A stretch of 64,000 nt of DNA from a virus (taxonomy: Duplodnaviria > Heunggongvirae > Uroviricota > Caudoviricetes), in the IMG/VR virus record IMGVR_UViG_3300045450_000131, positions 97,228-161,227 of that record. One strand, 5' to 3'. The first letter of the stretch is position 1. Every line of letters starts with the position of its first letter. The translations under genes and the position numbers were made by a program. Below, one piece after another: positions 1,456 through 57,932 of the stretch. Below the pieces are notes generated by a model. It was not told the origin of the DNA. It was given only the letters and a program-made list of their open reading frames with translations, and ran no database searches.

Positions 1456-1887
1456 TTAGCGGGTGACGTCGAGTGGCTCAATCATTTCATGCCAGAACAT
1501 CATTCCAAAATTAGGCAATTCTAATTCATTAATATTAACTTTGCTGCCCTTTTGAATTGAGAGATGCGGGGTGTACGTCTCATAGTCATGAGTACCCCCA
1601 ATGCTCATAAAGTACTCATGACGTCTATTCAAGGTGGGTGAGTCTAATACTATCACTAGATATCCATCATCAAATTGCTCAAACTTTATTGGCGTCGCAA
1701 AGTACTCTGTCGATAGCTGCGTCGTTTTAACTTCTTTTCTAGAATATAAAAGGGTGACGTGCAGGTCATCATTTAAAGTGATTCCCTGCACGACAGCCCA
1801 CTCTTTTAAGAGAGCTAACGTTGCAGGCGTCGGCTTGACAGAAATGTAAGTTCCGGTAGTATTTTCCATTAACTCTCTCAGTAACAT
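1456..1887 (-). CDS. acb1: 2H phosphoesterase, T4 gp57B/Acb1-like anti-CBASS nuclease
   Basis: Two H-x-T/S motifs (LHVTLLYSR, YTPHLSI), plus LVIVLDS..L..RH and G.THDY..YTPH, colinear with T4 57B as recalled; 143 aa. Confidence 0.8.
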   Translation of the reverse strand: MLLRELMENTTGTYISVKPTPATLALLKEWAVVQGITLNDDLHVTLLYSRKEVKTTQLSTEYFATPIKFEQFDDGYLVIVLDSPTLNRRHEYFMSIGGTHDYETYTPHLSIQKGSKVNINELELPNFGMMFWHEMIEPLDVTR

Positions 1888-1890
1888 ATT

Positions 1891-2136
1891 TTATGCTAGA
1901 AGTTTCTTTAGTTCGTTAAAGCCGCCGATGGGCGTGCCATTATGTAGAATTTGTGGCATGCTCTTGGCCGTTGGGATTTGGCTAATTAGGTCGTTACGCG
2001 AAATATACTTTGCGTTCTCTTCCTTCTTTTGTCCGACATCGAGGTGGACAATCTCAAAGTTGGCACCGCACTTTTCAAGTAGTGCCTTGCTTTGATCACA
2101 GAATGGGCATGCAGGTTTTGAATATACTGTAAACAT
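1891..2136 (-). CDS. Glutaredoxin (NrdC-like)
   Basis: CPFC active site, SMPQI and IGGFNEL motifs; adjacent to nrdB. Confidence 0.92.
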   Translation of the reverse strand: MFTVYSKPACPFCDQSKALLEKCGANFEIVHLDVGQKKEENAKYISRNDLISQIPTAKSMPQILHNGTPIGGFNELKKLLA

Positions 2137-2144
2137 AGTTCTCC

Positions 2145-3308
2145 TTAAAGGTCTGGAAGATCGTCATAGTCAATAGTTGAAGTCATGGCGCCCAGAACAT
2201 ACGCCACGTTTTCAGTTTCTTGCATCGCAACTTGCTTCTTGTTGGTGTTGAAGTGCTTATTGTACCATGGAAGGGGAGTTGAACGGACGGTAATAGGAAT
2301 CTTAATCCCGATGTCGTTCAACTTAAGGGGTGCAGTATGGTCAACGAAATCGACCATGATTTTTTCATTCATGCCGGACATTGGACCAAACTTAAATTGA
2401 TACTTTGCCCACGACTTCTCTTCGTCAATAACGGTAATAAGTGCATCACGCGCTTCCTTCATCATCTCAAGTGCAACTTGCTTGAAGCGGGGATCGCGCT
2501 TAACGAGAGAATTAATAATCCAGGCAGTCCATTTGGTGTGAAGTGTTTCGTCCTGTAGAATTAGGGAGATGATATTGCCTGAACCGATAAAGATTTTGTT
2601 TTCAACCATACCCAAACTGGTAGCGAATGAAACCATGAATCGAATTGCTTCTAACCCGTATGACGCAATCAAAGCCATCCAAATGGCTCTAATGTGTTTA
2701 TGTTCGGTGGTTTGGCTTTCAAGGTACTTAATAGTTGGTGCAAGTAAAGCCTTCAGTTCAGGATTACGTTTGACATCTTCTCTTAAGCTATTTAGGGTGA
2801 TTATGTTGCTGTTGATCTGGTGAAGCTCATCATAATATTTGCTAATGCCGCTCGTCATATTGATAATTTCTGGATTATCATGGATAGAGTTAAACTGCTC
2901 AACTGGCACGTTGTAAATGTTTTTAATAATGTGCGAATATGAGTCAGAGTGGATTTGTTCAATTGCTGACCACCACAACATCAGGCCTTCAATTTCTGGC
3001 ACTGAACAAACTGGAGTAAAGATTTGAACTGGTGATCGACCTTGGATAGAATCAAGGGTAGTTTGACGCAAAAGGTTAGAAGTGTAGATGTGACTGGTTG
3101 CACGAGATGCTTCCTTGAAGTCAATCTGATCCTTCATCAAGTTAATTTCACCTGGTTGCCAGAAGGCACCCTTCTGGATGTTTAAAAATTCAGCAACTTT
3201 AGGGAATGCATATTCTTCGTAGCGCTGGATAGTAACTGAACCGGCTGGGTCTAAGAACATCTGCCGATTGCTGTAGTTTGGGATTTTTGAAAAGTCTAGT
3301 GTTGCCAT
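2145..3308 (-). CDS. nrdB: Ribonucleotide reductase class Ia beta subunit
   Basis: FWQPGEINL, EQIHSDSYS, LEAIRF and DETLH iron ligands; C-terminal QETE..Y. Confidence 0.96.
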   Translation of the reverse strand: MATLDFSKIPNYSNRQMFLDPAGSVTIQRYEEYAFPKVAEFLNIQKGAFWQPGEINLMKDQIDFKEASRATSHIYTSNLLRQTTLDSIQGRSPVQIFTPVCSVPEIEGLMLWWSAIEQIHSDSYSHIIKNIYNVPVEQFNSIHDNPEIINMTSGISKYYDELHQINSNIITLNSLREDVKRNPELKALLAPTIKYLESQTTEHKHIRAIWMALIASYGLEAIRFMVSFATSLGMVENKIFIGSGNIISLILQDETLHTKWTAWIINSLVKRDPRFKQVALEMMKEARDALITVIDEEKSWAKYQFKFGPMSGMNEKIMVDFVDHTAPLKLNDIGIKIPITVRSTPLPWYNKHFNTNKKQVAMQETENVAYVLGAMTSTIDYDDLPDL

Positions 3309-3361
3309 GTTAAAAATAGTTATATAGAGGTGGAGAATTTAAAATTCTCCACCCTCTTAAT

Positions 3362-5731
3362 TTATAGAACGCAAGCCTCGCAAGCTTCTTCATCATCGAT
3401 ACTCATGATAGGTGATGGCTCACCAATGTATTCAATTATATTACTTACGCTGGCCTCGTCATCCTTACTAACAGCATCGTGCAATCCTTGCTTGTCGGTT
3501 AGGTTGTAGTAGTGAGACTTAAATCCCCACTTATGGCACAACATTAGCACCTTCAATACGAGGGTGATCGGAATCTTACCCTGTGGGAAGAACTTCGGTG
3601 AGTAGAAGGTATTAGACGAGATACCTTGATCAACATACACCTGGCAAACTGCCACGGTCTTCAGGTATGGGATTGGGTCTGGCTGATCCCATAGTAGTTG
3701 ATAGTGCTTGCCTAATTTCTTGTATTCTGGTGCAACTTGCGCAAAGCCGCCAGCTTTGCTTTCCTTAATAACAATTAGCTGCTTAATCATTTCCATGCCG
3801 TTGGTTGAAGTCAACACGACAGAGGATGATTCAACCGGCGCAATTGCCATGAGAGTGGAGTTGCGAATGCCAAACTTTACCATTCGACCCCGTAGGAATT
3901 CCCAAGCAAGGTCTTCAGATGGGCTGAAGTCTGTAATTTCATTGACGCCTGGCGCTCGACGCTCCCACGGGAAGACGCCCTTGCCATACCATGTGTTCTT
4001 TGATTCAGTGCATGGGCCCTTCTCTTCAGCCAAGTCAACGCTTGCCTCAATTAGATAATATGAAAGGTGCTCCATAACCTTCTTCATTTCAGCTAGCGCT
4101 TCAGGCTCACCATACTTAAGCTTGCGCTTAGCATGCCAGTAGGCAACGTTGGTGATACCTATTCCGAGTGGCTCGAATTCAATGTTGTGCAATCTAGATT
4201 GTTCAGTGAGGAAGGTCTGATATTGCAGCAAGTTGTGTAACCAACGATGTAGTACACGAGCTGGGTGCTTCAAGTCAGATGGACGCTTAATTTTGCCCAA
4301 GTTAAGAGAACCTAAGGTGCAAAGTGCAATGCGGCCGTCGGGATCATCGACAGTTTGGAACGAACGGGTGTGCAGCATGATTTCAGTGCATAGGTTCGTT
4401 TGGTAAACTGGGGATATTGTCGAAATCAGCGGGCCTTGATTCTGAACGTTGTCTACATTCAAAATGAAGATACGGCCGGTTTCTTGCCGTTCCTTAATGA
4501 ACATGTCCTTGAAGATGGTTTCGGCTGGGATTGAGCGAGTGCGCAGGTCCTTCCTTTTCTCATACTTGACATACAGTTCTTCAAACTTCGCGATATCACG
4601 ATAGTAAGCTTCATACAAGTCAGGCACTTCATTTGGGTCGAAGAAGGTGATGTTTTGCTGAGCTTTGAGCCGCCGCCAGAAGATCGCGGCATTTGCAACG
4701 CAGTAGTCAAGGTGACGAACTCGACTTTCCTCAGTGCCTTGGTTGTTCTTTAAAACAATTAGGTCGGGGAATGAGTAGTGCCAGATTGGATAGTTAACGG
4801 TTGCGGCGGCATTACGAATACCACCAGCGGAGCATGAACGCAAATCATAGAACCACTTCTTCAGGAATGGGGTAAAACCAGTGTGCTTGATTTCACCGTT
4901 GCGAATTGGGGCACCAAGCGGGCGAAGACGACCAACATCCAAACCAATACCGGCGCGCTTGCTTGCATAGTCAGCAAGGACTTGGCCAGATGCAAAGATT
5001 GACTTAAGAGTGTCGTCAGACTTAATTAAAACGCATGAGCTAAATTGCTTGGTTGGGGTACCTAAGCCTGCAAGCACTGGAGTTGCCAAGGTGAACATGC
5101 CGTCAGATGATTCTTGATAACCATCTCTAACCCACTTCATACGGTCCTTCTTCTCAGCGTGAAACGCGGTGGCTGCTGCAACCATGTAACGCACTTGTGG
5201 GGTCTCAATAATTTGACCAGTTACCTTATTTTGAACTAGGTACTTTTCGCATAGCTGCTCAACTGCGGCATAAGGTAGAAGCTCGTCTTTGTCATGGTCA
5301 ATGTACTTATCAAGTTGGTCCCATTCGGCTTCGGTATACCACTCTAGCAATTCACTGGTGTAGAGCTTTGTATCAACGTTCTTCTTGATGATTTCATACA
5401 GTCGCGGTGGGGTGTAATCTCCATACACGTCCTTCCGCAGCATGGTGATGCGCTGCTTACCAGCTGCCATTTCGTACATGACGTCACCAATGTCGGGATG
5501 CTCCGACTCGTCAATTAAATTAACCATCCCGCGAAGTGCGATTTCATCCAGCTGTCGTGTCGTCATGCCATCATGAAACTCAGCTTGCGCGTGAATCTCA
5601 ATCATCGATGGGGATACGTTTGGAATGCCATCGCAGACACGGGCAATTTGGGCCTGGAATTTAGCGAGGTCAAACTTAGTTTTAGAACCATCGCGTTTAA
5701 CTAATGTGTAATCTTCTAGTTTCTTTTCCAT
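3362..5731 (-). CDS. nrdA: Ribonucleotide reductase class Ia alpha subunit
   Basis: N-terminal ATP cone (VKRDG..F), ATPVLAGLG, QFSSCVLI, TNLCTEI, CTLGSLN, and C-terminal CEACVL. Confidence 0.97.
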   Translation of the reverse strand: MEKKLEDYTLVKRDGSKTKFDLAKFQAQIARVCDGIPNVSPSMIEIHAQAEFHDGMTTRQLDEIALRGMVNLIDESEHPDIGDVMYEMAAGKQRITMLRKDVYGDYTPPRLYEIIKKNVDTKLYTSELLEWYTEAEWDQLDKYIDHDKDELLPYAAVEQLCEKYLVQNKVTGQIIETPQVRYMVAAATAFHAEKKDRMKWVRDGYQESSDGMFTLATPVLAGLGTPTKQFSSCVLIKSDDTLKSIFASGQVLADYASKRAGIGLDVGRLRPLGAPIRNGEIKHTGFTPFLKKWFYDLRSCSAGGIRNAAATVNYPIWHYSFPDLIVLKNNQGTEESRVRHLDYCVANAAIFWRRLKAQQNITFFDPNEVPDLYEAYYRDIAKFEELYVKYEKRKDLRTRSIPAETIFKDMFIKERQETGRIFILNVDNVQNQGPLISTISPVYQTNLCTEIMLHTRSFQTVDDPDGRIALCTLGSLNLGKIKRPSDLKHPARVLHRWLHNLLQYQTFLTEQSRLHNIEFEPLGIGITNVAYWHAKRKLKYGEPEALAEMKKVMEHLSYYLIEASVDLAEEKGPCTESKNTWYGKGVFPWERRAPGVNEITDFSPSEDLAWEFLRGRMVKFGIRNSTLMAIAPVESSSVVLTSTNGMEMIKQLIVIKESKAGGFAQVAPEYKKLGKHYQLLWDQPDPIPYLKTVAVCQVYVDQGISSNTFYSPKFFPQGKIPITLVLKVLMLCHKWGFKSHYYNLTDKQGLHDAVSKDDEASVSNIIEYIGEPSPIMSIDDEEACEACVL

Positions 5732-5848
5732 ATTTCAGTGTAAATGTTGATTTCAGAGATAGCAATGCCCGCTAACAATTAGTTATTGTAACTTAAAGTT
5801 AAGAAGGGCTAAAGACAATAATAGGCTCACGATGGAGCCTATTATGTC

Positions 5849-6442
5849 TTATGCAAATGTTTCTGGGGAAGTTGTGAAGGCGCGCATTTCATTAATGCGG
5901 CGGAGCCAACCATTGAGGTATTTTGCTTGTGATGGGTTTGATGCGACGATCTGCCTGTAAAAGGCAGTGCGCTGATCACAAATGCTATTACATGCAGTAA
6001 TCTGGTTGAGGGTTTTAATTTTGGCGAGTGTGACAGGTCCAATTACGCCATCTGCATTTACACCTGCTGCCCGCTGTAAGAAGGTGTTGGCACGCTGAAT
6101 GCCGTGGTTAACGCAGCCGTCAAAGTGTAAAACTGCAATTCGTGATGGTAGTTGGTCGCACTTTCCGGCGATCCAGTATCTTGCGAAGTAAACCGCCTTT
6201 GCTTGTTCCCAAGTCAATAATGCAATATTCAAATCATTATTGGCATTTTTAGCCACGCCAAATTTAGTTTCGCCGCCCCTGTCTTGGGGATCGTTGACGT
6301 AACCGACTGCTTTACGGTTAGCGGCAGTATCAATCCGACCTAATAATACGGCTGGGTGGTTTACATTCCAGAAACCACCCACCTCGTACAACATCGCATG
6401 GTCAATAGCCCGTTCAAAGGCTTTTGTGTATGCCATAATCAT
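5849..6442 (-). CDS. Endolysin, glycosyl hydrolase 108 family with peptidoglycan-binding domain
   Basis: EVGG, DPQDRGGETKFGV, FDGCVNHG, LQRAAGV.ADG.IGP.TL and YL.GW..R motifs. Confidence 0.88.
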   Translation of the reverse strand: MIMAYTKAFERAIDHAMLYEVGGFWNVNHPAVLLGRIDTAANRKAVGYVNDPQDRGGETKFGVAKNANNDLNIALLTWEQAKAVYFARYWIAGKCDQLPSRIAVLHFDGCVNHGIQRANTFLQRAAGVNADGVIGPVTLAKIKTLNQITACNSICDQRTAFYRQIVASNPSQAKYLNGWLRRINEMRAFTTSPETFA

Positions 6443-6461
6443 ACTCCTTGTTTATGAGGAG

Positions 6462-6469
6462 TATTTATA
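6462..6469 (-). promoter_or_regulatory. T4-type late promoter TATAAATA
   Basis: Exact T4 late consensus about 20 nt upstream of the endolysin start. Confidence 0.75.
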
Positions 6470-6493
6470 AGGCACCGCCCAGATTACGAAAGA

Positions 6494-7003
6494 TTAACCC
6501 AAAATATCACCAACTGTGCTGCCATTAATATATCTCCCTAAATCATGGGGTCCGCACACAATACCATAAAAAATCTGCTTTCCATGTGATAATTCAGGCC
6601 CGGTTGGGTGAATCATAGCACTTCCCTTCAGAATCATTGGGTGTACACAGGATTTCTTTTCTGAAAAATTTACAACCTGTAATTTAGTTGTAACTAATTT
6701 TGAGTCGTGCGGCGAGAATAACAAAATGTCATGTTCGAAGGTGGCACAAGCCGTAACTGGGATTGTGTCAATAGTATAAGTTTCCTTATCCACTGCAATC
6801 AAAGACCAGGATGCAGGCAAGTCCATCTCTAGATTTTGCACCTTGATAGTAATGGTTGGCCCGGTTGTTTCTTCCAAGTAATCTAGTGATTCAACCTTGA
6901 AGTCCATCATATGGCCTGAGAAGGACCAGAAGTGAGTGACTCCCATTGGGGCACTAATATTATCGATAATGTATGGACGTGAGAAGTCAGATAGGATTTG
7001 CAT
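6494..7003 (-). CDS. Hypothetical protein
   Basis: 169-aa ORF in operon context; no motif recognised. Confidence 0.7.
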   Translation of the reverse strand: MQILSDFSRPYIIDNISAPMGVTHFWSFSGHMMDFKVESLDYLEETTGPTITIKVQNLEMDLPASWSLIAVDKETYTIDTIPVTACATFEHDILLFSPHDSKLVTTKLQVVNFSEKKSCVHPMILKGSAMIHPTGPELSHGKQIFYGIVCGPHDLGRYINGSTVGDILG

Positions 7004-7029
7004 GTTTTCTTATTTTCAATCTAATGCTG

Positions 7030-7335
7030 TTATAGTGGGGCTGGTGTGTAATCGGCTTCAAAATCATCTTTTGACATTACAATAAATCTGCCTAATTTAG
7101 TCTTAGTAATATAATCTCCCGGTTCTATGAGCTCGGGATAAAATTCACCATCCATAATAAAGTCAGAAACTTCTAATATACCATATCGGTTACGTGGCAA
7201 CTCTAATTCAAGTGTTCCTGCCGTCCCGACTATTTTAATATCGTCGGTATTAAGTAATTCTCTAACGTCAGGGTGATCACCGTGTTTCCACCACTGAGTG
7301 GCTTCAACATATTGTGGGTTTCGCATGTATCTCAT
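7030..7335 (-). CDS. Conserved phage protein of the EA.QW...GDYI type
   Basis: VEATQW, GTLE, PGDYITK and F...Y motifs of a widespread phage family of unknown function. Confidence 0.65.
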   Translation of the reverse strand: MRYMRNPQYVEATQWWKHGDHPDVRELLNTDDIKIVGTAGTLELELPRNRYGILEVSDFIMDGEFYPELIEPGDYITKTKLGRFIVMSKDDFEADYTPAPL

Positions 7336-7826
7336 AGAGTGATTATCGACATGTAGATTGCACCGTATTCAAAATCAGCGTGATCAAATCCTGCTTCGCT
7401 GTATGCCTTTTCAATTTGAATCTTTTGAATTGAAACTAAAATCTTAGAAGTTGCGTGCTTGTTATATTTCTCTTCATTCTTAACTAAAGCTAAGACTTCA
7501 TGCTTAATGTGATTAAATGCCGCATATTCTAAGTCTAGACCACCATTGATCATAATAATGCGTTTTTCAATATCAATAGCGAAGTCCTCTTTTGCTATCA
7601 TATCGCCGTAATTTTTATCGTGATATGAATACGGTCTATTAAGCTTGAATGTATTACAGTTTAAACTTTCTGGTGAATTACCCACAGTTTGAAAGTCAAT
7701 TTGGATGCTATATCTTAAATCCAACTTTCTTAATTCAGAGATTACTTTTCTACGCAACTCTATATTAGCAAGGTATTCGTCTCTGCTCATGTTATCTTCC
7801 AATTCTGTTATTTGACAATCGCTCAA
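7332..7826 (-). CDS. Hypothetical protein
   Basis: ORF overlapping its neighbours; the start may be at MSRDEY. Confidence 0.6.
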   Translation of the reverse strand: MSDCQITELEDNMSRDEYLANIELRRKVISELRKLDLRYSIQIDFQTVGNSPESLNCNTFKLNRPYSYHDKNYGDMIAKEDFAIDIEKRIIMINGGLDLEYAAFNHIKHEVLALVKNEEKYNKHATSKILVSIQKIQIEKAYSEAGFDHADFEYGAIYMSIITL

Positions 7827-7980
7827 TTAACATCTTTAGCTTGTCATTCTCTAATTCTAGCCTATCAATTCGGGCGGCAAGTTCAGCATATCCACTAATA
7901 TTTTTGTGTTCTTCCATGCCTAATCGATTATTTCTATCAATTAGCTGCAAGTTGTCAAATTGCTCTTTAGTCATTGTCAT
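7792..7980 (-). CDS. Hypothetical small coiled-coil protein
   Basis: 62 aa, heptad-rich C-terminus, overlaps both neighbours. Confidence 0.55.
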   Translation of the reverse strand: MTMTKEQFDNLQLIDRNNRLGMEEHKNISGYAELAARIDRLELENDKLKMLIERLSNNRIGR

Positions 7981-8219
7981 GATGATAGCCTCTTAAGTTT
8001 GTTTTGCAATTCAGTTACTTGAGCTTTCAATACCCTATTTTGGTGCACCAATAGATTTGCCCTATCAGTTAGGGACTTAATCTGATTAGTTAGTGAACGC
8101 GTGTGCTTAAAAATATTCTCATTGAGATGTTTTATATTAGCTTCATCCTGTGATGGCATAGAATCCTCATGTAATTTTCTAATATTACTGATTGTAACAC
8201 GCACCACAAAGTCGCGCAA
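7977..8219 (-). CDS. Hypothetical coiled-coil protein
   Basis: 80 aa with a heptad pattern. Confidence 0.5.
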   Translation of the reverse strand: MRDFVVRVTISNIRKLHEDSMPSQDEANIKHLNENIFKHTRSLTNQIKSLTDRANLLVHQNRVLKAQVTELQNKLKRLSS

Positions 8220-8257
8220 GTATTTCTAGGTTGCGCGACTTTGTGGTGCAAAAATGC

Positions 8258-8629
8258 TTAGACTTTCTCTTTTACAAATTTAGCGTGAAATTCTTCTTCT
8301 GTATACTTTCTAACAACATACCCTTCGTCAGCATCAAACATATACCTCAAATAATAATCTTTATATTTTAAAGCATAAAGAGTGTTTACCGACACTCTTA
8401 CATCCTTATGATGAACCGCAAAACAGTAAGTTTCCTTAGGATCAACTTCCATAAGAAGCGCCTCTAAGTGTTCTTTAAGAAGCGCATATGAGGTATCATC
8501 TAATGGTGTTAAGATAGGTGCTGTGCAAAAAATATCATCAAATAATGATACGGTCACACCCCATGCATGCTTTTTAATACTTTTGTATCGTGTCTCTTTC
8601 GCGTAATCATCTAAAGTTAGTTTTTCCAT
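8258..8629 (-). CDS. Hypothetical protein
   Basis: 123-aa ORF directly downstream of uvsW with an SD-like AGGG. Confidence 0.6.
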   Translation of the reverse strand: MEKLTLDDYAKETRYKSIKKHAWGVTVSLFDDIFCTAPILTPLDDTSYALLKEHLEALLMEVDPKETYCFAVHHKDVRVSVNTLYALKYKDYYLRYMFDADEGYVVRKYTEEEFHAKFVKEKV

Positions 8630-8638
8630 AATTTTTCC

Positions 8639-10051
8639 CTAAAGCTTGTATTTTACAAGTTTGTTAATAGGATATTCGGATTGTTTAAAATATTTTGCAC
8701 GCTCTCTGTAATGTTTCTTACTCCACTTCAGTTTGGAGTGAACATCCACCAGGTGAACACGCTCTTTATCTCGGCCTTTTCGCAATCCACGGCCAATACT
8801 TTGAATACAGCGGATGAAGGACTTGCCTGCATCCACCATAATTTCGCAGAAAATCCGATCAATACTAATACCAGTTGACGCAATGCCGAAGGTCGCAATA
8901 ACAATCAAGTCATCACGGGTTTCAAACATACTATACCACTCTGCTCTGACATCTGTATCATCCGCGCCATGTAAGAAGACGGAATCCTTGATTAGTTTCT
9001 GTAGTGCCTTACCCTGTTTAATTGAATTTACTAAAACTAGGGTGTTGCCATATTGCTCCGCCTTGACAATAATCAAATTGGCTAGAAAGTCAAGCCGCTC
9101 GGATGACTTCGCCAAGAAAGTCTTCTCACTGCCGTAATCTGGAAACTCTTCATCGACGTCATCTTCAATCTCGACTGGCTCAATCTCAAGTTGTGCTAGG
9201 TATCCCATTTCCATCAACTGCGCGGCGGATATAGAATATAATACCTCGCCAATGGAGCCCTTCAGAGTGACCTTGTCAATCTCTGGAGTAGGCATGGTAC
9301 CAGTAAAACCGAAGCGATACCCAATATCCTTTGCATAGACATTAATTAGTTCGCCAACTACCTTCGCCTTAGCACCATGCGCTTCGTCAACAATGACGCA
9401 GTGGAAGTCTCTCACTACAGCTGGGTTATTCTGTAGAGATTGCCAAGTCGCAACTACCACCTCGTGGTAGATGTCTTTCGTACTGCCTGAATAGATACCA
9501 ACATCTAATAATCCTAACTTAAAGGTGGCAACTGTCTGCTTAACTAAGTCGTCTGACGGCACAATAACGATAGTGCGCTTATCATTAATTGCCATTACAT
9601 CCGCCAGGCCAGCAACCATCCAAGTCTTGCCTGAACCCGTCGCAGCTAGAATAAAGCCGCTGGTATTTTCCAAGCATGCATTGATGGCATCAACTTGATA
9701 TGGTCGCAATTCGACTTTAAGCTGCATGCCCGGCTTATTAATAAACCAATCTTTGTCAATCCTAGTATCAATTAACTCTATAGGCTTGCGGTTATCCACT
9801 AAGTCAATGTCGTAATTCCAACTTTCCAGGTATGGGGTGATGTCATCTAGCAGTCTATGGTAGACTTTGCCATTCTTATCAAAGAAATTTACCTTCCCAT
9901 TCCATCTCCCAATCTTGTAGGCAGGCATGAAAAAAGCCCCCTCGACCATGAGAGCAAACTTATTTTCTAAGAACTCTTGGTCAGGAGGATTCAAGCCACT
10001 GATGTGACAATATACTTCATCATTTACAGTAATACGTGCGGTCTTACCCAT
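8639..10051 (-). CDS. uvsW: SF2 DNA helicase, UvsW-like
   Basis: LRPYQ, ATGSGKT, IVDEAH, GFTGT, TGISI and QSIGRGLR motifs. Confidence 0.93.
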   Translation of the reverse strand: MGKTARITVNDEVYCHISGLNPPDQEFLENKFALMVEGAFFMPAYKIGRWNGKVNFFDKNGKVYHRLLDDITPYLESWNYDIDLVDNRKPIELIDTRIDKDWFINKPGMQLKVELRPYQVDAINACLENTSGFILAATGSGKTWMVAGLADVMAINDKRTIVIVPSDDLVKQTVATFKLGLLDVGIYSGSTKDIYHEVVVATWQSLQNNPAVVRDFHCVIVDEAHGAKAKVVGELINVYAKDIGYRFGFTGTMPTPEIDKVTLKGSIGEVLYSISAAQLMEMGYLAQLEIEPVEIEDDVDEEFPDYGSEKTFLAKSSERLDFLANLIIVKAEQYGNTLVLVNSIKQGKALQKLIKDSVFLHGADDTDVRAEWYSMFETRDDLIVIATFGIASTGISIDRIFCEIMVDAGKSFIRCIQSIGRGLRKGRDKERVHLVDVHSKLKWSKKHYRERAKYFKQSEYPINKLVKYKL

Positions 10052-10451
10052 ACTTAAAGTGTCGTTCTAAATTATTCATTTTAATAAACTTGAAAACATT
10101 TGGCTCACCGATTGAGTTTGCCATCTTAGCCCACACAAGCTGGGTGATTAAACTCAGCTCGTATGCGGTAATGTCTGTCTCAATACTTAACTTAATTGTA
10201 ACACGCTCACCATTTTCATTAATGTATGTTAAGGACAAGGTAGGAAGGTCAGCAGTTTCACCACCTTGTTTGACTTTGAACAGCTTAGCATTATCGAGCA
10301 TTGGAAATTGCTGTAAAGAAACAGGAATCTTGATGTGAGATACATCAGGCATCGTTGTGTCCATCTCTGTCTTTCCTCTATATCCAACTTGTACGTTATC
10401 TATATCCACGTTAACGAATGGATCAACTACTAATCTAGTTACAAATTTCAT
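10044..10451 (-). CDS. Hypothetical protein
   Basis: 135 aa, overlapping neighbours between uvsY-like and uvsW. Confidence 0.65.
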   Translation of the reverse strand: MKFVTRLVVDPFVNVDIDNVQVGYRGKTEMDTTMPDVSHIKIPVSLQQFPMLDNAKLFKVKQGGETADLPTLSLTYINENGERVTIKLSIETDITAYELSLITQLVWAKMANSIGEPNVFKFIKMNNLERHFKYG

Positions 10452-10909
10452 ATGATTGCGTCCTCGATAGTGGCTACACGCAACTTAACAATTGCGCCGA
10501 TCATCCAGCCCATCTGCTTAAAGCCGTCAACGATTTCTTCTAACTTACCGTAAATCAACGCCGCTTCAATGATAAGCTGATTTAGCTCGACAATGTCCTT
10601 CTCACCATTAATCAGAGTCGTCGCTTCTCTTGCAGCAAGCGCTCTTGATCCTTGAGAGTAATTCTTAGTAAAACGCGCTTCAAGTCTATTCCGGTTATTT
10701 TCTAACCACTTCATAAGCTGCTTCATTTCCTGCATTTTCTGCGCGTAGAATGCCTGGTGCTTTGGTAAGTCTCGAGCTAGGTGCTCGAGTTTCTTTCCTT
10801 CAATGTCAAACAGCTTATCAGACTCGATGACGTATTGCTCATATTCAATAAACAGCTCAGGCAGTTGCTCCTGTAGCTTGTCGTCTTCAAGTGTGAATAG
10901 AAAGCTCAT
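10448..10909 (-). CDS. uvsY: Recombination mediator, UvsY-like
   Basis: Helical 153-aa protein in the uvsX-uvsW cluster with FKQMGWMIGAIVKLR, resembling the UvsY C-terminal motif. Confidence 0.65.
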   Translation of the reverse strand: MSFLFTLEDDKLQEQLPELFIEYEQYVIESDKLFDIEGKKLEHLARDLPKHQAFYAQKMQEMKQLMKWLENNRNRLEARFTKNYSQGSRALAAREATTLINGEKDIVELNQLIIEAALIYGKLEEIVDGFKQMGWMIGAIVKLRVATIEDAII

Positions 10910-11127
10910 TAATAACCTTCGTCCTCGTCATCAAGGTAGTTATCATTTTCGTCATCATCGGTGTCGTCATCATCGCGTGGGTTCTTACCAGTCACGTCTT
11001 CAATCTTGAAGGACTTAGCTAGGCCATCACCAACGACTAACTCGCCAATAGTTTCTGCCTGCTCCTTGGCATCGTCAATGCTATTTTCTTTGATTTTAAA
11101 AGTGATTGTTGCTTCGTAAATTGCCAT
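10909..11127 (-). CDS. Small acidic hypothetical protein
   Basis: 72 aa with an Asp/Glu-rich tail. Confidence 0.6.
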   Translation of the reverse strand: MAIYEATITFKIKENSIDDAKEQAETIGELVVGDGLAKSFKIEDVTGKNPRDDDDTDDDENDNYLDDEDEGY

Positions 11128-11196
11128 GATATGTGATCTCGCTAAAAATGATATTTTAACAAATTAAATTACTTGATATAAACCTGTATAAGGTTA

Positions 11197-11222
11197 AAAG
11201 GGGAGAATTAAATTCTCCCCTT
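11197..11222 (-). terminator. Rho-independent terminator downstream of uvsX
   Basis: GGGGAGAATT / AATTCTCCCC inverted repeat followed by TTTT on the minus strand. Confidence 0.75.
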
Positions 11223-11226
11223 ATTT

Positions 11227-12330
11227 TCAATCTAATGCTTTATCGTTGTCGTCGTCTGATAGCGCTTCGATAATTTCAGCAGTATTGACTGCTTCCTCTG
11301 GCCGCTCTAGAATTGGTAGGCATTCTGGGTGAGTTAGTAATAACTTAGCAATGTCATGCGTAAGTTCGCTTTCCTTAAATGCTACTCGTTGCTTTTGGCC
11401 CTTTGCATCAGTAAATTCAGCAACATACTTTTGCTTTTCACCAGGTTGAGTGCCCTTGGCAATGACCTTCATCTCTTCCAGCAACTCAACCAAGCCGCTG
11501 AATGGGCTCATGCCCTTGTTGTATGGAACTTCTAATTCAACCTTAGTGCCAAGCTTTGCAAAACGTGACTTGTAGGTTTCGAACTTCATTCGGACGCCAG
11601 TTACAATACCTTCTTCCTTCAGCTTCAGCTTAGTAACAATACCAATAATTGAAACTGAGAACTTGGTGCTGTTAGTAATGGCCCATGCACCGTCACCCAT
11701 CATAATGTCCTGTGGATAGACGTGATCGGTTAACACGAACGAGATAGGAAGCCTACCGATATTGCCAACTGCAAGTCGTAGCATTGCTTTACGACGCTTT
11801 GCAAGCTGACCTTGATCACCCTTAATAACACCCTTGTCGTAGTTCTCGATTTCTGTCGAGGAGCTCAACATTGCAAGTGAGTCCAATACAATAAGAACCT
11901 TATCACCATTTGGATTATCCTTACCGAATTCCTTAGTGTAGGAACTGAAGAAGTCTGATAGAACTCGATTCACGTCTTCAATCGTGGTGACTGACAGATA
12001 AGTGAGCTTTTCTTCGCTAATGTCGACGCCGATCTTACGCAGATAGTCTACGTCAATCGCATGCTCTGAGTCTAGATACACAATGTGATAACCTTCAAGC
12101 TGGGCTTGCAGTGCAAGGTTAGAAGCCATGAATGACTTACCAGAACCTGATGGACCTGCAAATAGAGTTAGCTTAGAAAGTGGAATGCCCTTCAGGAAGT
12201 CACCGCTGAGAGCGCGATTTAGTGCATAGTTACCGGTTGATAGCCATGTTTCAGTGGTCTTGATACCAACACCAACAGTGTCAAGTTTAGCCACGTCTTT
12301 CTTAAATTGAGAAAGAAACTTTAATGCCAT
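11227..12330 (-). CDS. uvsX: RecA-like recombinase UvsX
   Basis: STGNYALN, GPSGSGKS, YLDSEHA, VLDSLAML and GFSPFSGL-like (GMSPFSGL) motifs. Start moved to MALKF at 12330 behind an AAGG SD. Confidence 0.94.
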   Translation of the reverse strand: MALKFLSQFKKDVAKLDTVGVGIKTTETWLSTGNYALNRALSGDFLKGIPLSKLTLFAGPSGSGKSFMASNLALQAQLEGYHIVYLDSEHAIDVDYLRKIGVDISEEKLTYLSVTTIEDVNRVLSDFFSSYTKEFGKDNPNGDKVLIVLDSLAMLSSSTEIENYDKGVIKGDQGQLAKRRKAMLRLAVGNIGRLPISFVLTDHVYPQDIMMGDGAWAITNSTKFSVSIIGIVTKLKLKEEGIVTGVRMKFETYKSRFAKLGTKVELEVPYNKGMSPFSGLVELLEEMKVIAKGTQPGEKQKYVAEFTDAKGQKQRVAFKESELTHDIAKLLLTHPECLPILERPEEAVNTAEIIEALSDDDNDKALD

Positions 12331-12386
12331 TTGTATTCCTTTTTGAAAACGACTTCGGCAGAATTGCTCTGCCGATTTTCCCAAAT

Positions 12387-12413
12387 TAGGTGGACCCGAA
12401 GGCCCACTCCTAA
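12387..12413 (-). terminator. UUCG-capped hairpin between gp32 and uvsX
   Basis: GTGGGCC-TTCG-GGTCCAC on the minus strand; weak U-tract, so a terminator or a processing stem. Confidence 0.55.
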
Positions 12414-46946: not shown

Positions 46947-48857
46947 TCATCCAATCAAAAACGCACAATTGCCCGCTGAACCAGGCCCGCCGTATTCATA
47001 ATTTAATAATTCTTCTTTTAGTTCTACCATGTCTTGCCTAGCTTCAGAAATTAGCAACTCACCATTTAAATTAATGGTACCGTTAGGACCAGGTGTACCA
47101 GAACTAAACTTGCTTCTAATCAATCCAAGCATCATCTTCAATTCAGCCATTGCCCATCCTTGAAGATATTGCTTACACCATCTATCTCTTAATAATTCCT
47201 GCTCGGTTTTTTCTAAGTTACATTCAATTAGGATTGTTTCATATCCCCTGATTGCACGGGTAAATAGGATTTCACGTGAGGCTTCGTCCCACTGGAATGT
47301 TAAATCGCCAGCTAAGATACGCTGCAGTTCTTCTCCGTATGATGCAACTAAATGTGTGGATAAAATATCTCCACCACCGGCCGATAAATTATAAAACTGC
47401 TGAGCAAACGCTTGTGACCATACATCTGATGGACCACCAGTAAATGCTGCAATTGGACCAATGCGACTGATTTTAAAAATGTCAACAATTTTATCAGTTT
47501 TGTCAATTGCGGAATTTAAGTAATATAGTTGCTGGTTTGGAATTAGCTTGAAAATAATGTAGCCACGCTTATATGCTCCCGCAGATAGTTGACGGTAAAA
47601 TTCCAATGCATTATCAATCGCAATGTTAAATTGCTCTTCCTGTAGCTCGACGCACATCTGCGGCCAGCCCATCTGAGAGTTTAATACCTTAATAAGCTTG
47701 ATGCGCTCATCATAACTTCCATCATCTCCAATTGCAACTTTAGATGTAGTAGGCGATCCTTCTTGATCTGTATTAACTTTATTCCAACTAACTCCATTCC
47801 ATGCATTTAATTCTTTAGTAGTGGTGTTATAAAATAGCTGGCCGATGTAGGGCGCATTTAATAACTCTGGTTCTAAAGTTAATGGTGTTACGAATGCTGG
47901 TGTTAAGTTTGAGCCGTTATTGAATAGTGAGTTGGTGCTATTCGGTACCACCCACATTGCGCCATCAAAGTAATGAATTCTTTGTAAGGTGTAATCATAA
48001 TAAACATCACCGATCTCTGGATATTCAGGTGTTCTAATATTTGCGGTAATCTTATTAAAGGCTGCCCATGTTGCACCTGCTCTTAATGATAGATTATCTT
48101 TATTAACATCAATCCAAATACGACCGTTAAAAACTTTGAGTTGGTGGCCACCATATAGATAAACCTGGCCTAATAGACCTGGATTATAGGAGCCACTAAC
48201 AATTGAATCTGCGCGAGTTGGAATCCACGCCCCAGTAATGCCATCATAATATTGAACAATGTTAAGTTGTTGGTCATGATACACCATGCCAGGTGTTGGG
48301 GATAATGGCGCTGTTTGGAAAGATGGGATGTTGCCGGTATATGACGAGCTATACTTTTCAGCCGAAGCACCTTCAAGAGGGTATGATTGCACCCCAATTG
48401 GATAATATTGAATTACGTTGGAACACGCATGAACAGAAGCATAGTAGATAACGTTAGGATTAGTATTTTCGACTACAATGCTGAAGATTTTGAAATTTGC
48501 AGGAAAGCCAGTTACCGTCGCTGTAGATTCTAAAACTTCAGGTTCTGGGAATGGTTCATTTAGAATATTGTAGTATGCGCCAACAACTTGTGCCTCGTCA
48601 ATCTTGTTGGTTGGATTTGTCCAGTCAGGATTTTTATCAGCAAAATATCTTTCGCCGTCTTGTGGGTAATTAACAGTGCTAATTGGCTTGTCGCTCAATA
48701 AGACGATTGCGCCGTCCGCAACATCTTGTGCTAATGGTCGCTTTACTACCAACTTAATTGAAGTCGGAGTTGGGCGAGAGATTTCAATTGAGAACTGACG
48801 AGCGTTTATCCAAAGATCGTGGGTGGTTTTAGAACTGATGTCTGTCGGTGTAAGCAT
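46947..48857 (-). CDS. Neck protein, gp13-like, with long N-terminal extension
   Basis: C-terminal LG.P...VEL..EQ...AID.AL..Y, W...A.AE.K..LG.IRSKF and LNGE.LI.EA motifs. Start at MLTPTD (48857) because CATAAATA lies at 48883-48890. Confidence 0.78.
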   Translation of the reverse strand: MLTPTDISSKTTHDLWINARQFSIEISRPTPTSIKLVVKRPLAQDVADGAIVLLSDKPISTVNYPQDGERYFADKNPDWTNPTNKIDEAQVVGAYYNILNEPFPEPEVLESTATVTGFPANFKIFSIVVENTNPNVIYYASVHACSNVIQYYPIGVQSYPLEGASAEKYSSSYTGNIPSFQTAPLSPTPGMVYHDQQLNIVQYYDGITGAWIPTRADSIVSGSYNPGLLGQVYLYGGHQLKVFNGRIWIDVNKDNLSLRAGATWAAFNKITANIRTPEYPEIGDVYYDYTLQRIHYFDGAMWVVPNSTNSLFNNGSNLTPAFVTPLTLEPELLNAPYIGQLFYNTTTKELNAWNGVSWNKVNTDQEGSPTTSKVAIGDDGSYDERIKLIKVLNSQMGWPQMCVELQEEQFNIAIDNALEFYRQLSAGAYKRGYIIFKLIPNQQLYYLNSAIDKTDKIVDIFKISRIGPIAAFTGGPSDVWSQAFAQQFYNLSAGGGDILSTHLVASYGEELQRILAGDLTFQWDEASREILFTRAIRGYETILIECNLEKTEQELLRDRWCKQYLQGWAMAELKMMLGLIRSKFSSGTPGPNGTINLNGELLISEARQDMVELKEELLNYEYGGPGSAGNCAFLIG

Positions 48858-48882
48858 ATGTAATTCTAGAGAAGTAGAAACA

Positions 48883-48890
48883 TATTTATG
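48883..48890 (-). promoter_or_regulatory. Late promoter-like CATAAATA heading the neck/ART operon
   Basis: About 26 nt upstream of 48857. Confidence 0.65.
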
Positions 48891-48957
48891 CCCTAATATG
48901 ATCACCCACCGCTATTTAGCAACTAATACTATATGTGTGTGCTGGTGTAAATACAGA

Positions 48958-49281
48958 ATGGACTTCATATTACACACCTTTCGCCCGACCGAAACAGTTG
49001 ACGCGGTTCTTAAATTAATGAACAGACACGATATGCCACGAGACATCCTCCTGGTCTTACGTCAAAGTTTTAACCAGCTTAATGGGATGGCTGTGCCTCG
49101 AGTCGGCCAAACTTTTAAGATTCCAGTTGAAGGTAAATCTCAGGAATATCAAGAGGCTATATTGCCCTTGCCCGAGGCACAAAAAGAGGAGGTGCCAATT
49201 ATAACACCTCCTCAAGATAATAGTGGTTTAACTGTTGTTGGCGCTAAGAGACCAACTAGAAAAATTGTAACCTTAAGTTAA
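48958..49281 (+). CDS. LysM-like domain protein
   Basis: HTFRPTETVDAVL...F..LNG...PRVGQTFKIP resembles LysM. Start set at MDFIL, with TAAATA 4 nt upstream. Confidence 0.55.
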   Translation: MDFILHTFRPTETVDAVLKLMNRHDMPRDILLVLRQSFNQLNGMAVPRVGQTFKIPVEGKSQEYQEAILPLPEAQKEEVPIITPPQDNSGLTVVGAKRPTRKIVTLS

Positions 49282-49863
49282 GACATTCAAGACGATCTTG
49301 CTGATATTGATAGCATCGTCTTGTCCATTGTGGGGCCTACCGTCAAAGACGTGGCCGCAATAGTTGAGCATTCTATCCAAGCCCATTTCCTTCTTTAGAT
49401 TGTGCTTTAAAGCGAAAAGAGTTTTGATATTATAGAAGCTTCGCATATTGTCAAATGGATTGTCTTCATATGAGATACCGTATAAGCCGACGCCCTGCTT
49501 GCCAGTTACGCTAGATAACTTCCATCGATCATACTCTCCACATGCAAACCATATGTGCTGCTTTGTGCATTCACTGTCTGCCGCAAATTGCTTAAGACCA
49601 TCTACAATGTCTACACCGTGGCGATCTAGATCACCTTGAGCCCAGCCTGTAAGCTGTGTACAGAACTTGCTAACTTTTGAATACCGTGGCTTAATAATAA
49701 CTGAGCCCTTCTTGATAACTTTCTTTTCTGTCAAGTTAAGCTTTGCCCACCCAATCTCAATTACCTCACTTGGTTGATTGTTTTGCAATTCACTTGCGTC
49801 TGTCTTATCCCAACACGTGGCTTCTACATCTACCACGATGACTTCATTTAGCTTAGCGCCCAT
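49273..49863 (-). CDS. DEDDh 3'-5' exonuclease (ERI-1/KapD-like)
   Basis: VVDVEATCW, EVIEIG, FCTQLTG, GEYD and G.PH.G.DDA motifs. Confidence 0.9.
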   Translation of the reverse strand: MGAKLNEVIVVDVEATCWDKTDASELQNNQPSEVIEIGWAKLNLTEKKVIKKGSVIIKPRYSKVSKFCTQLTGWAQGDLDRHGVDIVDGLKQFAADSECTKQHIWFACGEYDRWKLSSVTGKQGVGLYGISYEDNPFDNMRSFYNIKTLFALKHNLKKEMGLDRMLNYCGHVFDGRPHNGQDDAINISKIVLNVLT

Positions 49864-50954: not shown

Positions 50955-51416
50955 TTATTCTCTCACTAATTTAAAATAGGTGCCTTCAATCCAGTCGTCT
51001 TCACCAGTTTCGATTTTAAAGCCCGCTGGCTTGAATCTTTTTAGCATGGTGCCATACACCCTAACTCTAGATTTTTCTTTTTCAGTTGCGGTGAAAACAA
51101 GTGCCTTTACGTCTTTTTCTTTAATTAAGTATTCTAGAATTTTCTTGATGGTTGCAAACACCTGAAATTCTTTGCCGGTGCCCGTCTTATCATAGGATGG
51201 GGCCTTACCACCAGATATTTCGTAAAATTGTATTTCCCATTCATCAACGTCCATTTTGCCATCTTCGACAAAGCTAGGTATGACTATGCGGTTGGCGGTG
51301 AATGTGATTCGTTTGTCATCTATAACAAACTTAGCAGTTAGATTCTTCTCTGTATTCTTAGTGATAATAAAATCAACTGGCTGATTTAACACTTCAAGCA
51401 ATTCTTCTATTTTCAT
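50955..51416 (-). CDS. Hypothetical protein, paralog of 57516..57932
   Basis: Starts MKIEELLEVLN; WEIQF, TG.G.EF.VF and R.R.Y motifs shared with the paralog. Confidence 0.7.
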   Translation of the reverse strand: MKIEELLEVLNQPVDFIITKNTEKNLTAKFVIDDKRITFTANRIVIPSFVEDGKMDVDEWEIQFYEISGGKAPSYDKTGTGKEFQVFATIKKILEYLIKEKDVKALVFTATEKEKSRVRVYGTMLKRFKPAGFKIETGEDDWIEGTYFKLVRE

Positions 51417-55101: not shown

Positions 55102-55518
55102 ATGACATATCGAGCTTTACCAAAACCTGATCATTATTTTACCGCTCCACCAGGCACCTGTAGGTGGTGTAATAAATCCACCGGCTTGACTCCAAAAGGC
55201 AAGCCTAAAACTTCTAGGTGGCACAAGGAATGCGTAGATGAATACTTATTTTTATATTGGCCATCAGAGGCCCGCAAGAAGGTGTGGGCCAGAGATAAGG
55301 GGAAGTGCGCCTGTTGTGGAATTGTCTGCCAGCGACATGGTAATAACTGGGACTTAGATCACATCAAGCCGCTAGTTGAAGCAAACCATGATAAGTCATA
55401 TTGGCAGCTTGATAATATGCAAACCCTCTGCAAACAATGTCACAAAGAGAAAACCTCGCGTGAAGCGACCGCCCGAGCTGCAAAAAGAAAACTAGAAAAG
55501 GCCAAGAATGTTAATTAA
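55102..55518 (+). CDS. HNH endonuclease
   Basis: CRWC, RDKGKCACCG, WDLDHIKPL and LDNMQTLCKQCHKEKT motifs. Confidence 0.88.
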   Translation: MTYRALPKPDHYFTAPPGTCRWCNKSTGLTPKGKPKTSRWHKECVDEYLFLYWPSEARKKVWARDKGKCACCGIVCQRHGNNWDLDHIKPLVEANHDKSYWQLDNMQTLCKQCHKEKTSREATARAAKRKLEKAKNVN

Positions 55519-56263
55519 TGAATTAGTCGGCGTCAAGAAATTTAAAGACATGACGGCCACCGACGTATTACAGCTACTGAGTAAGAATTACACCTCATTT
55601 AAAGATGTAAAATTGCTAGGCCAAGGTTCAAATGGTGCCGCAGTTAAAATTAAGAATGACGTCTGGAAGTTCTGGATGGTAGACTCTGCATATGAGGAAT
55701 ATGTCAGATATTGCCAACATAACGAAGGCAATAAATTCCTACCAAAATTTTTGTCTAATATAAAGAAAATTCCGGCCTTCTTTATTAGACATGAGGATGC
55801 GCCAAAGTATGTTAAGTGCATTAAGGTTGAGGAGCTTGAACCATTAGGTTATGCAAATGATGTTAAATTTAAACTTAATACTGGTAAGTTTATTACTTTA
55901 GAACATGTTATTAATGCCGCGGATAAGTTAACAGATAGTGAAGTTGGTGATAACTTCAGGTATGCAACTGCCCTTAGCGCTGGGGCTGATAGGAAAATTG
56001 AGGCTACAGACTTAAGTCAAGATTTAATCTTATTGATGAAGACGCTGGATGAAATTAGAAATCTAAATCACTTTCTAGATTTGCATGGAGGCAACTTCAT
56101 GTATAGAGATAAGCAACTAGTTATTTTAGACCCCATCGCTAATCATGATGACCTATACATTAACACCAACTTTACTAAGTTTGACATGCGTAGACCTGAG
56201 AATCGTAACAACGCGCAGCCAGCCTTCTCAAGCAAGGACGTCAATCAACGCGAGGGTGAATAA
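55508..56263 (+). CDS. Protein-kinase-like (ePK/APH superfamily) enzyme
   Basis: Gly loop LLGQGSNGAAV, beta-3 Lys (VWK), catalytic loop DLHGGNFM, and VILDP at the DFG position. Confidence 0.78.
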   Translation: MLINELVGVKKFKDMTATDVLQLLSKNYTSFKDVKLLGQGSNGAAVKIKNDVWKFWMVDSAYEEYVRYCQHNEGNKFLPKFLSNIKKIPAFFIRHEDAPKYVKCIKVEELEPLGYANDVKFKLNTGKFITLEHVINAADKLTDSEVGDNFRYATALSAGADRKIEATDLSQDLILLMKTLDEIRNLNHFLDLHGGNFMYRDKQLVILDPIANHDDLYINTNFTKFDMRRPENRNNAQPAFSSKDVNQREGE

Positions 56264-57405: not shown

Positions 57406-57443
57406 GATTTAATTTCCTTGACAAAGTTTGTTTTGATAGATGA

Positions 57444-57472
57444 ATTATATCTAATCTGCCAAGGTTGTACAT
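57444..57472 (-). promoter_or_regulatory. Early promoter ATGTAC-N17-TATAAT
   Basis: Variant of the GTGTAC class. Confidence 0.6.
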
Positions 57473-57481
57473 ATGATTCTT

Positions 57482-57489
57482 GATAAATA
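57482..57489 (+). promoter_or_regulatory. Late promoter-like GATAAATA
   Basis: 26 nt upstream of the 57516 start. Confidence 0.55.
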
Positions 57490-57515
57490 TATGAATAATA
57501 CAACTTATTACATAT

Positions 57516-57932
57516 ATGCTCATCAAAGAACTGCTAGATGAAGTTTTAAACACCAAGTTTGACTTCAACATCATCACTAGCACTGGTAAAATTTTAAAGG
57601 CATCTACTGAAATTGGAGAAGCCACATATACCTTTACGGCGTACATGCCATATACTGGCGCCGCGTGGGACTTTGAATTTTCAAGAGGTGAGAGCGGCTA
57701 TGAACTTAGCAACACGGGTGATGAATTCAAGGTTTTTTCTGTAGCGCGGCAATTCTTTGATTTACTAATGACTAAGAAGAATCCTGAAAAGATCTACTTC
57801 AGTGGAGCTGTCGATGAAGGTAGAGAAAGATTATATAAGAAGTTTGCCTTATACCTATCTCGTCAATATAATTTAAAATTAAATACTCGTGAGTATGAAG
57901 ATGAACATCAATACACCTTAAGCAAGGTGTAA
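57516..57932 (+). CDS. Hypothetical protein, paralog of 50955..51416
   Basis: Starts MLIKELLDEVLN; WDFEF, NTGDEF.VF and RERLY motifs. Confidence 0.7.
   Translation: MLIKELLDEVLNTKFDFNIITSTGKILKASTEIGEATYTFTAYMPYTGAAWDFEFSRGESGYELSNTGDEFKVFSVARQFFDLLMTKKNPEKIYFSGAVDEGRERLYKKFALYLSRQYNLKLNTREYEDEHQYTLSKV

Follow-up and report, generated by a model that had tools for sequence, protein, structure and literature searches.

The capsid targeting sequence (CTS) of the internal proteins of phage T4 was reportedly described by Mullaney and Black in 1996. Alt, an ADP-ribosyltransferase (ART), resides in the T4 head at about 40 copies and is injected, its N-terminal peptide being removed by the protease gp21; gp24 loses the ten-residue MAKINELLRE to gp21, which also cleaves itself N-terminally (MNEPQLLIE). 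Cleavage by gp21 takes place after Glu in I/LxE motifs (PMC12991175), and small N-terminal peptides are stripped by it from T4 IPI-III and Alt (PMC9958956). The CTS is about ten residues long, carries foreign proteins into the core and is the sole part common to the diverse set of T-even internal proteins, and the T4 internal head proteins with this class of peptide are ejected along with the DNA (PMC9958956, PMC3012670). Here we describe a peptide of the same class (class I) that opens eight putative enzymes encoded in a 64,000-nucleotide stretch of viral DNA, hereafter the window, which covers bases 97228-161227 of the 162,127-bp IMG/VR record IMGVR_UViG_3300045450_000131 (completeness ~45% by CheckV). 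Because eight enzymes open with the head-loading peptide of T4, we consider it likely that class I is a T4-type capsid-loading peptide placed on new cargo, and that the proteins bearing it are packed in the virion, cut and delivered with the DNA.

The class I peptide and the T4 CTS are similar with regard to length, position and sequence. The pattern M[IK]TF[KR][QED][FY][IL]x(x)E opens eight open reading frames (ORFs), seven ART-fold paralogues and one P-loop kinase; in all eight the tag begins at Met-1 of the ORF, 0-27 codons past the in-frame upstream stop, and is closed by [IL]-x-E. In T4 (NC_000866), ipII and ipIII start with MKTYQEFIAE, ipI with MKTFKEFTST, alt with MELITELFDE and gp24 with MAKINELLRE. 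The tag MKTFKQFITE of the window is identical to the IPII/IPIII peptide at 6/10 positions and to the MKTFKEF of IPI at 6/7. In both phages the peptide comprises about ten N-terminal residues of the pattern M-K/I-T-F/Y-K/Q-E/Q-F-I/L-x-E, sits on unrelated proteins and ends in I/L-x-E, and both encode a gp21-type protease. Here the protease is a Peptidase_S77 (PF03420, 48.3 bits) at record positions 161885-162112, beyond the window, its gene being cut by the end of the record; an S77 protease is also encoded in 5/5 large tag-bearing IMG/VR contigs tested. The first-pass annotation had matched these N termini to the T4 CTS, a match borne out by the sequence identity, the I/L-x-E end and the S77 protease gene in the record: class I, with the consensus M-[IK]-T-F-K-Q-F-[IL]-x-E, is orthologous to the T4 CTS.

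The capsid protein of this phage (60738-62006, minus strand) is a member of the Pfam family Gp23 (E 7e-85), and the proteins that match it best, at 42-50% identity, come from the jumbo phages RsoM2USA and XacN1 and from the RaK2 group. Together with the S77 protease, this identifies the window as a piece of a T4-superfamily jumbo phage. Megablast of 39000-47000 against GenBank phages returned no match, and no gp24 paralogue was found in the 162-kb record. Although the peptides correspond, there are differences from T4. The present phage is a distant jumbo relative, its cargo consists of enzyme-like proteins of 22-33 kDa rather than small basic internal proteins, and the tagged genes lie in a neck/tail operon rather than at the T-even IP loci; the function of the cargo is predicted from sequence. 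With Alt, the tagged proteins would share the fold of an NAD-utilising enzyme, delivered ready-made by the head in T4 and predicted to be so here. However, no relation to Alt is detectable in their sequences, Pfam gives no ART match, and they form a family of nine paralogues, seven of which carry an IP-type tag instead of the Alt-type peptide. More distant still are phiKZ-like phages and SPN3US, giant phages of an unrelated lineage with long propeptides, no common short tag and the cleavage motif S/A/G-X-E. There, many head-internal proteins, paralogue families included, are cut after Glu by a T4-related prohead protease (PMC5694885, PMC7411985).

All eight tagged genes lie on the minus strand, and the seven ART-fold paralogues were recognised with a family hidden Markov model (HMM). 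Five are of similar length: 39221-39889 (222 residues, MKTFKQFITE with tag codons at 39860-39889, E 4e-62, phrog_11975), 40688-41371 (227 residues, MITFKQFLSE), 41368-42057 (229 residues, MISFREFLLSE), 42054-42728 (224 residues, MITFKQFIQE) and 42732-43373 (213 residues, MITFKQFLLSE). Two longer paralogues are of the phrog_12810 type, 45219-46052 (277 residues, MITFKQFLYE) and 46054-46935 (293 residues, MITFKQFLSE, with an extra ATG 3 nt upstream). The eighth gene, 31250-31990, encodes a Zeta-toxin/AAA_33-type P-loop kinase of 246 residues with the tag MKLTFKDYLLSE; it matches PF06414 at 33.1 bits (cut-off 22.3) and PF13671 at 32.8 bits (cut-off 27), and its Walker A motif, GIPGAGKS at residues 27-34, is intact. 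Every N terminus listed by the first-pass annotation, both for class I and for a second class considered below, was located at the gene named when read from the sequence.

The tags are far from what chance would place at these positions. Translating the 162,127-bp record in all six frames gives nine copies of the core pentapeptide F[KR][QED][FY][IL], and eight of the nine are class I N termini. A class I regular expression found six N termini against a mean of 0.00 in 2000 shuffles, so that the comparison with shuffled N termini suggested in the first-pass annotation came out strongly in favour of class I. A weight matrix trained solely on the tags of other genomes (metagenomic homologues, Atu_ph07 and RsoM2USA) puts the eight class I tags first; seven outscore all 39,727 internal windows, and the remaining one has p = 2e-4. 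The matrix revealed no further site of comparable score in the 162 kb, and tag-like repeats sought inside the scaffold, core and capsid proteins gave best windows of p ~0.003-0.005, which is chance level. In a 97%-complete relative of 349.7 kb, ten proteins are of the class I type, which argues for about ten per genome, not dozens. Within the ART family, pairwise identity is 46% in the tag columns, 31% in the domain and 17% in the linker.

The tag also behaves as a module outside this genome. An exact-pattern search of IMG/VR for DNA encoding MITFKQF gave at least 135 matches at more than 118 loci. Among the matches listed, 111 are complete ORFs (at least 60 residues). With their first 12 residues trimmed off, these ORFs form at least 51 clusters, and ART-like proteins make up only 18 of the 111. 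Positions left free in the search agree with the CTS pattern as well, with Leu or Ile at position 8 in 82% and Glu at position 10 in 71% of these ORFs. Across the 135 copies listed, the synonymous codons of MITFKQF are all used and vary freely, and therefore selection acts on the peptide. Of 20 representatives of the other clusters, most have no Pfam family, the exceptions being a weak match to RNA_ligase and matches to DUF6321, Amidoligase_2, DUF6267 and Pribosyltran. The proposal that unrelated proteins share the tag thus stands for class I and goes beyond a paralogue signature. The kinase family is tagged throughout: among its best 120 homologues listed (55-77% identical), 120/120 have a recognisably similar N terminus (e.g., MITFKQY..ES, MKFEEFLLQES) and 93/120 fit a loose tag regular expression. 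Variants are carried by cultured marine T4-like phages too, such as MKTFAELQE in Melnitz. A literature search for MITFKQF or MKTFKQF found no paper.

A nucleotidyltransferase-like protein with the motif FGR[YL]NPPTVGH[EQ]KLI begins with MITFKQFFTE in one IMG/VR contig (L078, 12007-12606). In pelagiphage HTVC008M (L193, 5651-7441) the same protein begins with MKTLKELLRK, and its gene adjoins the kinase homologue.

Homologues of the tagged proteins have been found in the virions of cultured relatives. The ART-like paralogues match gp53-gp63 of Atu_ph07, and the kinase matches residues 250-462 of gp53, a 778-residue fusion of an ART-like protein and a kinase. The 11 genes for gp53-gp63 stand in tandem, and their products all start with M[RK]W.QL[TN]E or MRLFQLLE. 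We mapped the gp numbers by coding sequence (CDS) lengths (CDS49 1611 bp, CDS70 1323 bp, with 20 CDS between) and by the listed masses. Mass spectrometry of Atu_ph07 virions detected all of gp53-gp63, each by 3-31 unique peptides that cover 12-46% of the protein (PMC6102473, Table S5). In the same data gp53 (87 kDa) peaks in gel band 9, where proteins of 21-22 kDa run (PMC6102473, Table S5), which suggests proteolytic processing in or before the virion. In RsoM2USA a tagged ART-like gene (_255) adjoins a tagged kinase gene (_254), and one of the ten most abundant virion bands identified is ORF257, whose gene is flanked by two further tagged ones (_256 and _258). The cargo of both phages (gp53-gp63 and ORF254-258) is homologous to that of the window at 24-47% identity and carries variant tags, M[RK]W.QL[TN]E in the case of Atu_ph07; the papers on Atu_ph07 and RsoM2USA make no mention of a tag or fold.

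In the mechanism that we favour, the tagged proteins would be made late, and the amphipathic N-terminal peptide would recruit them to the scaffolding core inside the prohead. The gp21-type S77 protease would then remove the tag by cutting behind the Glu of its closing I/L-x-E, and the mature enzymes would remain in the DNA-filled head and exit with the DNA. We infer loading into the head, rather than into another part of the virion, along with cleavage, injection and enzymatic activity.

Several points weigh against this mechanism. The phage is known here from sequence alone. Its tagged genes have neck and tail genes rather than head genes as neighbours, and one ART-fold paralogue has no tag while another has a decayed one. 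In a structural model the tag opens one long helix (residues 4-36; predicted local distance difference test score (pLDDT) ~80), and so could equally belong to the fold. A candidate cleavage site in the capsid protein, LLE-TAP, aligns with DFQ-TAP of T4 gp23, a position that T4 leaves uncut. The Atu_ph07 virions were purified with polyethylene glycol, and among the 131 proteins reported are some that are probably contaminants (RecA-like, SSB-like and RNR), at 1-3 peptides each; the table reports virion association, N termini and head location being outside its scope (PMC6102473).

Of the alternatives, the one that survives best, though we judge it improbable, is that the tag is a propeptide by which minor structural, neck or tail-associated proteins assemble or dock to the scaffold, or an inhibitory propeptide of enzymes acting late in the producing cell, with no injected payload. 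Such a role would suit genes interleaved with those for gp13-like, gp15-like and sheath proteins, and the Atu_ph07 mass spectrometry speaks to virion association only, not to head location or ejection; gp53, peaking in the band of 21-22 kDa proteins, appears to be processed into pieces. However, small soluble enzyme folds are unlikely as structural parts, and T4 Alt is a precedent of a packaged ART. Moreover, the T4 proteins that bear this class of peptide are internal to the head and leave it together with the DNA (PMC3012670, PMC9958956).

A second alternative is that the shared N terminus is simply inherited and has no addressing role, being a mark of paralogy in the ART-fold proteins and a family-specific helix in the kinase. 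All but one of the eight tagged genes are paralogues, the kinase family is tagged throughout and the tag runs into a helix in the model, yet in IMG/VR at least 50 unrelated clusters begin with MITFKQF and the tag is better conserved than the domain in the ART family. Inheritance would also make the match to the T4 CTS, the I/L-x-E end and the co-occurrence with S77 all coincidence, and we regard it as very unlikely. Equally slight is the chance that the peptide serves translation initiation or mRNA structure, degradation, or export or localisation elsewhere: the tagged genes have no visible Shine-Dalgarno-like sequence, so that the coding start could matter for initiation, but the free synonymous variation (135 copies among the matches listed) indicates selection on the peptide, which has no hydrophobic signal-peptide character, and homologues of the tagged proteins are virion proteins.

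Should the class I tag work as in T4, a ten-residue motif would flag proteins delivered with the DNA in a large, mostly uncultured T4-related group. Host defences encounter such proteins before any other phage activity, and the expanded ART-fold family and the kinase, fused in some relatives, are candidates for early host takeover or anti-defence. The principle is established in T4, by the CTS, the polymorphic internal proteins and a packaged ART, and therefore the gain is in breadth and cargo and involves no new mechanism. The cultured relatives RsoM2USA and Atu_ph07 permit direct tests of the tag.

The fold of the tagged ART-like proteins was examined in the product of 42054-42728. Its AlphaFold2 model (pLDDT 90) consists of a helix formed by the tag and linker (residues 4-36), followed by an alpha/beta domain. 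Foldseek of this model gave no match in the PDB at E <= 0.001 and only uncharacterised proteins in the AFDB clusters. None of the seven tagged ART-like proteins has a Pfam family at E <= 0.01, and they match only PHROGs of unknown function (phrog_11975/12810). 'ART-like' is a reasonable fold label, and any ADP-ribosyltransferase activity would rest on a weak fold match. The family alignment contains a near-invariant R52-G53 in the first strand, an invariant R106 with F111 and T/S-like positions after it, and a near-invariant E201 on a late strand. R52, R106 and E201 are candidate catalytic residues, and these conserved positions could correspond to an R-S-E motif.

Searched with the family HMM, the record yields nine members, the seven tagged proteins and two others, both on the minus strand. 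The ninth paralogue (29741-30349, 202 residues) is untagged, starts with MAFGLPSFKSFAYKD and is aligned by the HMM from position 18 only; it offers a natural control for packaging. The start MAFGLPSFKSFAYKD resembles a decayed, extended xTFKQFLxE. In the remaining paralogue (32797-33573) the N terminus VKLCELHESKIKQYDSTE is decayed and the GTG start is uncertain. This gene is flanked by an HNH-like ORF (32000-32794, plus strand) with the motif EEHHIIPE...REHFICH, and its start is overlapped by a GIY-YIG-like ORF, YIYRMPNGEPFYIGKG (33560-34162, minus strand); both ORFs are homing-endonuclease-like.

The capsid protein was also proposed in the first-pass annotation to have a cleavage site of the same type. 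Its residues 34-42 do hold ...NQKKLLE-TAP..., and the candidate sites are LLE|G (residues 15-18), LME|N (30-33) and LLE|TAP (37-42, nt 61881-61898). The site is therefore present, whereas its use is at most plausible, since the aligned position of T4 gp23 (DFQ-TAP) is uncleaved. The site at which T4 gp23 is cut, LTE|A, falls in a stretch that is absent from this capsid protein in the alignment.

Next to the capsid gene, at the gp22 position, lies the gene for an acidic coiled-coil scaffold protein (62027-62911, minus strand) with 13 I/L-x-E sites and the N terminus MDEILNKLLQSE. The scaffold ends with ...FRRLAGLDK, and the upstream 136-residue protein (63313-63723) begins with ...NDARRLAGLPE. 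RRLAG[IL] is a conserved C terminus of the scaffold family and may be a docking or cleavage element.

Besides class I, the first-pass annotation had read a looser set of N termini (class II) as a second address tag. All of its sequences are present and they are over-represented, the pattern ^M.[LIV].EL having six matches against 0.37 in shuffles, although this regular expression was derived after the fact. The group is, however, heterogeneous, one of its starts is doubtful and its Acb1-like member has no added extension; the case for class II as an address tag is the weaker of the two. In the 349.7-kb relative the pattern has 14 matches in 532 genes. The weight matrix trained on external tags showed no link between class II and class I, the best class II score having E = 0.8.

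Three class II members of the window are proteins with comparable starts. MKVNELFEE opens a 181-residue protein with a Gly/Pro-rich middle (30708-31253, minus strand), from the second ATG of its ORF and directly downstream of the tagged kinase. MKIEELLE opens a 153-residue protein (50955-51416, minus strand), the second gene behind AATAAATA at 52294, and MLIKELLDE opens a 138-residue protein (57516-57932, plus strand) with GATAAATA 34 nt upstream; the latter two are paralogues (E 6e-11). A similar start, MKVVELFEAK, belongs to a 273-residue gene that lies between the S77 protease and scaffold genes and whose 3' part occupies 63705-64000 (minus strand), the gene running on to 64526 beyond the window. 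MKVNELFEE at 30708 and the MKVVELFEA of this protease neighbour have only their first 12 residues in common, and MK[LIVMF]xELFEE opens about 26 unrelated clusters in IMG/VR. A protein-kinase-like gene (55508-56263, plus strand) starts with MLINELVG, a weak match to the class, and its homologue in a related contig starts with MKVHELFEE. The start MKLCELHE requires a GTG codon directly after the inserted GIY-YIG gene, and the class II expression also catches an ABC-ATPase-like start, MSIIELKEINQTY.

The Acb1-like gene (1456-1887, minus strand) starts with MLLRELME and is covered by phrog_755 from residue 8. We considered this start as an added extension and rejected it because it aligns with the N terminus of T4 57B at a two-residue offset. 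A literature search for Acb1 in virions found nothing relevant. In T4 itself, the start of Acb1 (57B), MMEFKDFSTG, resembles that of the adjacent ipI, MKTFKEFTST (NC_000866; L004, 11592-12411).

Four of the class II peptides, MKVNELFEE, MLIKELLDE, MKIEELLE and MLINELVG, have the same M-x-h-x-E-L-h-x-E layout as the gp21-removed peptides of T4 gp24 and Alt, counterparts that the first-pass annotation had left unremarked. This layout speaks for class II, as do the start shared by the protein at 30708 and the protease neighbour, the MK[LIVMF]xELFEE clusters and the MKVHELFEE homologue. The T4 peptides are maturation propeptides of head components and are not known to act as portable address tags, whereas the class II proteins here are non-capsid. 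Most likely, class II is a looser group of N-terminal helices. Within it, MKVNELFEE, MKVVELFEA and the MLIKELLDE/MKIEELLE pair may be gp24/Alt-type peptides removed by the protease, and the Acb1-like and ABC-ATPase-like starts are probably native N termini. A role of some class II proteins in loading or cleavage is possible if doubtful, and for the Acb1-like protein it is more doubtful still. It is unlikely that both peptide classes are loading signals and that the head is pre-loaded with a dozen or more enzymes acting before phage transcription. In that event the cargo would comprise the seven ART-fold proteins, the Zeta-type kinase, the protein kinase, the Acb1-like anti-CBASS nuclease and others. 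MITFKQF[LI]xE would then lend itself, in the manner of a secretion signal, to predicting injected effectors of T4-superfamily phages, from pelagiphages to 490-kb jumbo phages, with at least 50 cargo families, most of them unassigned in function, already to be seen in IMG/VR.

The gene pair formed by the tagged kinase and its Gly/Pro-rich downstream neighbour recurs on several contigs and looks conserved, the neighbour having a conserved N terminus, MKxxEL..P.PLLEG, and a conserved C-terminal domain. A separate observation concerns the related contig IMGVR_UViG_3300043411_001582, where about seven leucine-rich-repeat proteins (5358-13022) all start with MKVSELFE[ED]EERSVLSVMG. Their genes surround the terminase gene and adjoin that of a class I protein, MMTFKQFLLE.

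The first-pass annotation had further placed most tagged genes in operons headed by late-type promoters. The seven tagged ART-like genes do share one operon, 48857 -> 39221, headed by the late-type motif CATAAATA (48883-48890, minus strand) 33 nt before the ATG at 48857. Its overlapping genes are, in order, gp13-like, two tagged, a virion protein, four tagged, gp15-like and one tagged, with no strong internal terminator found among them. The first gene (46947-48857) has a C-terminal part of the head-tail adaptor (gp13-like) family phrog_211, the virion structural protein (43370-45226) belongs to phrog_11591, and the gp15-like tail sheath stabiliser (39886-40695) matches PF16724 (E 4e-40), all on the minus strand. 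Many tagged genes overlap the preceding gene by 1-8 nt, and no Shine-Dalgarno-like sequence is visible upstream of the start codons of the tagged genes.

Elsewhere the promoter claim fares less well. The kinase has CATAAATA 79 nt upstream, a less convincing placement, and TATAAATA is not enriched genome-wide (13 found, ~16 expected). Ten of these 13 copies lie in upstream-oriented intergenic DNA, and NATAAATA typically precedes structural genes (capsid, sheath, tube and fibre), 27-40 nt ahead of their starts. Because most of the window consists of late genes, this motif evidence discriminates little, and late expression of the tagged operon is predicted at motif level. A scan of 29500-49400 for sigma-70-like promoters was uninformative (53 sites against 60 in shuffles).

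The transcription unit that precedes the operon is closed by a strong intrinsic-terminator-like hairpin (49186-49213, minus strand) with a 12-bp stem and a T run. Its loop region holds TGTTATAAT, which is the extended -10-like motif GTTATAAT; this motif is enriched in the upstream intergenic DNA of the genome, where 23 of its 38 copies lie.

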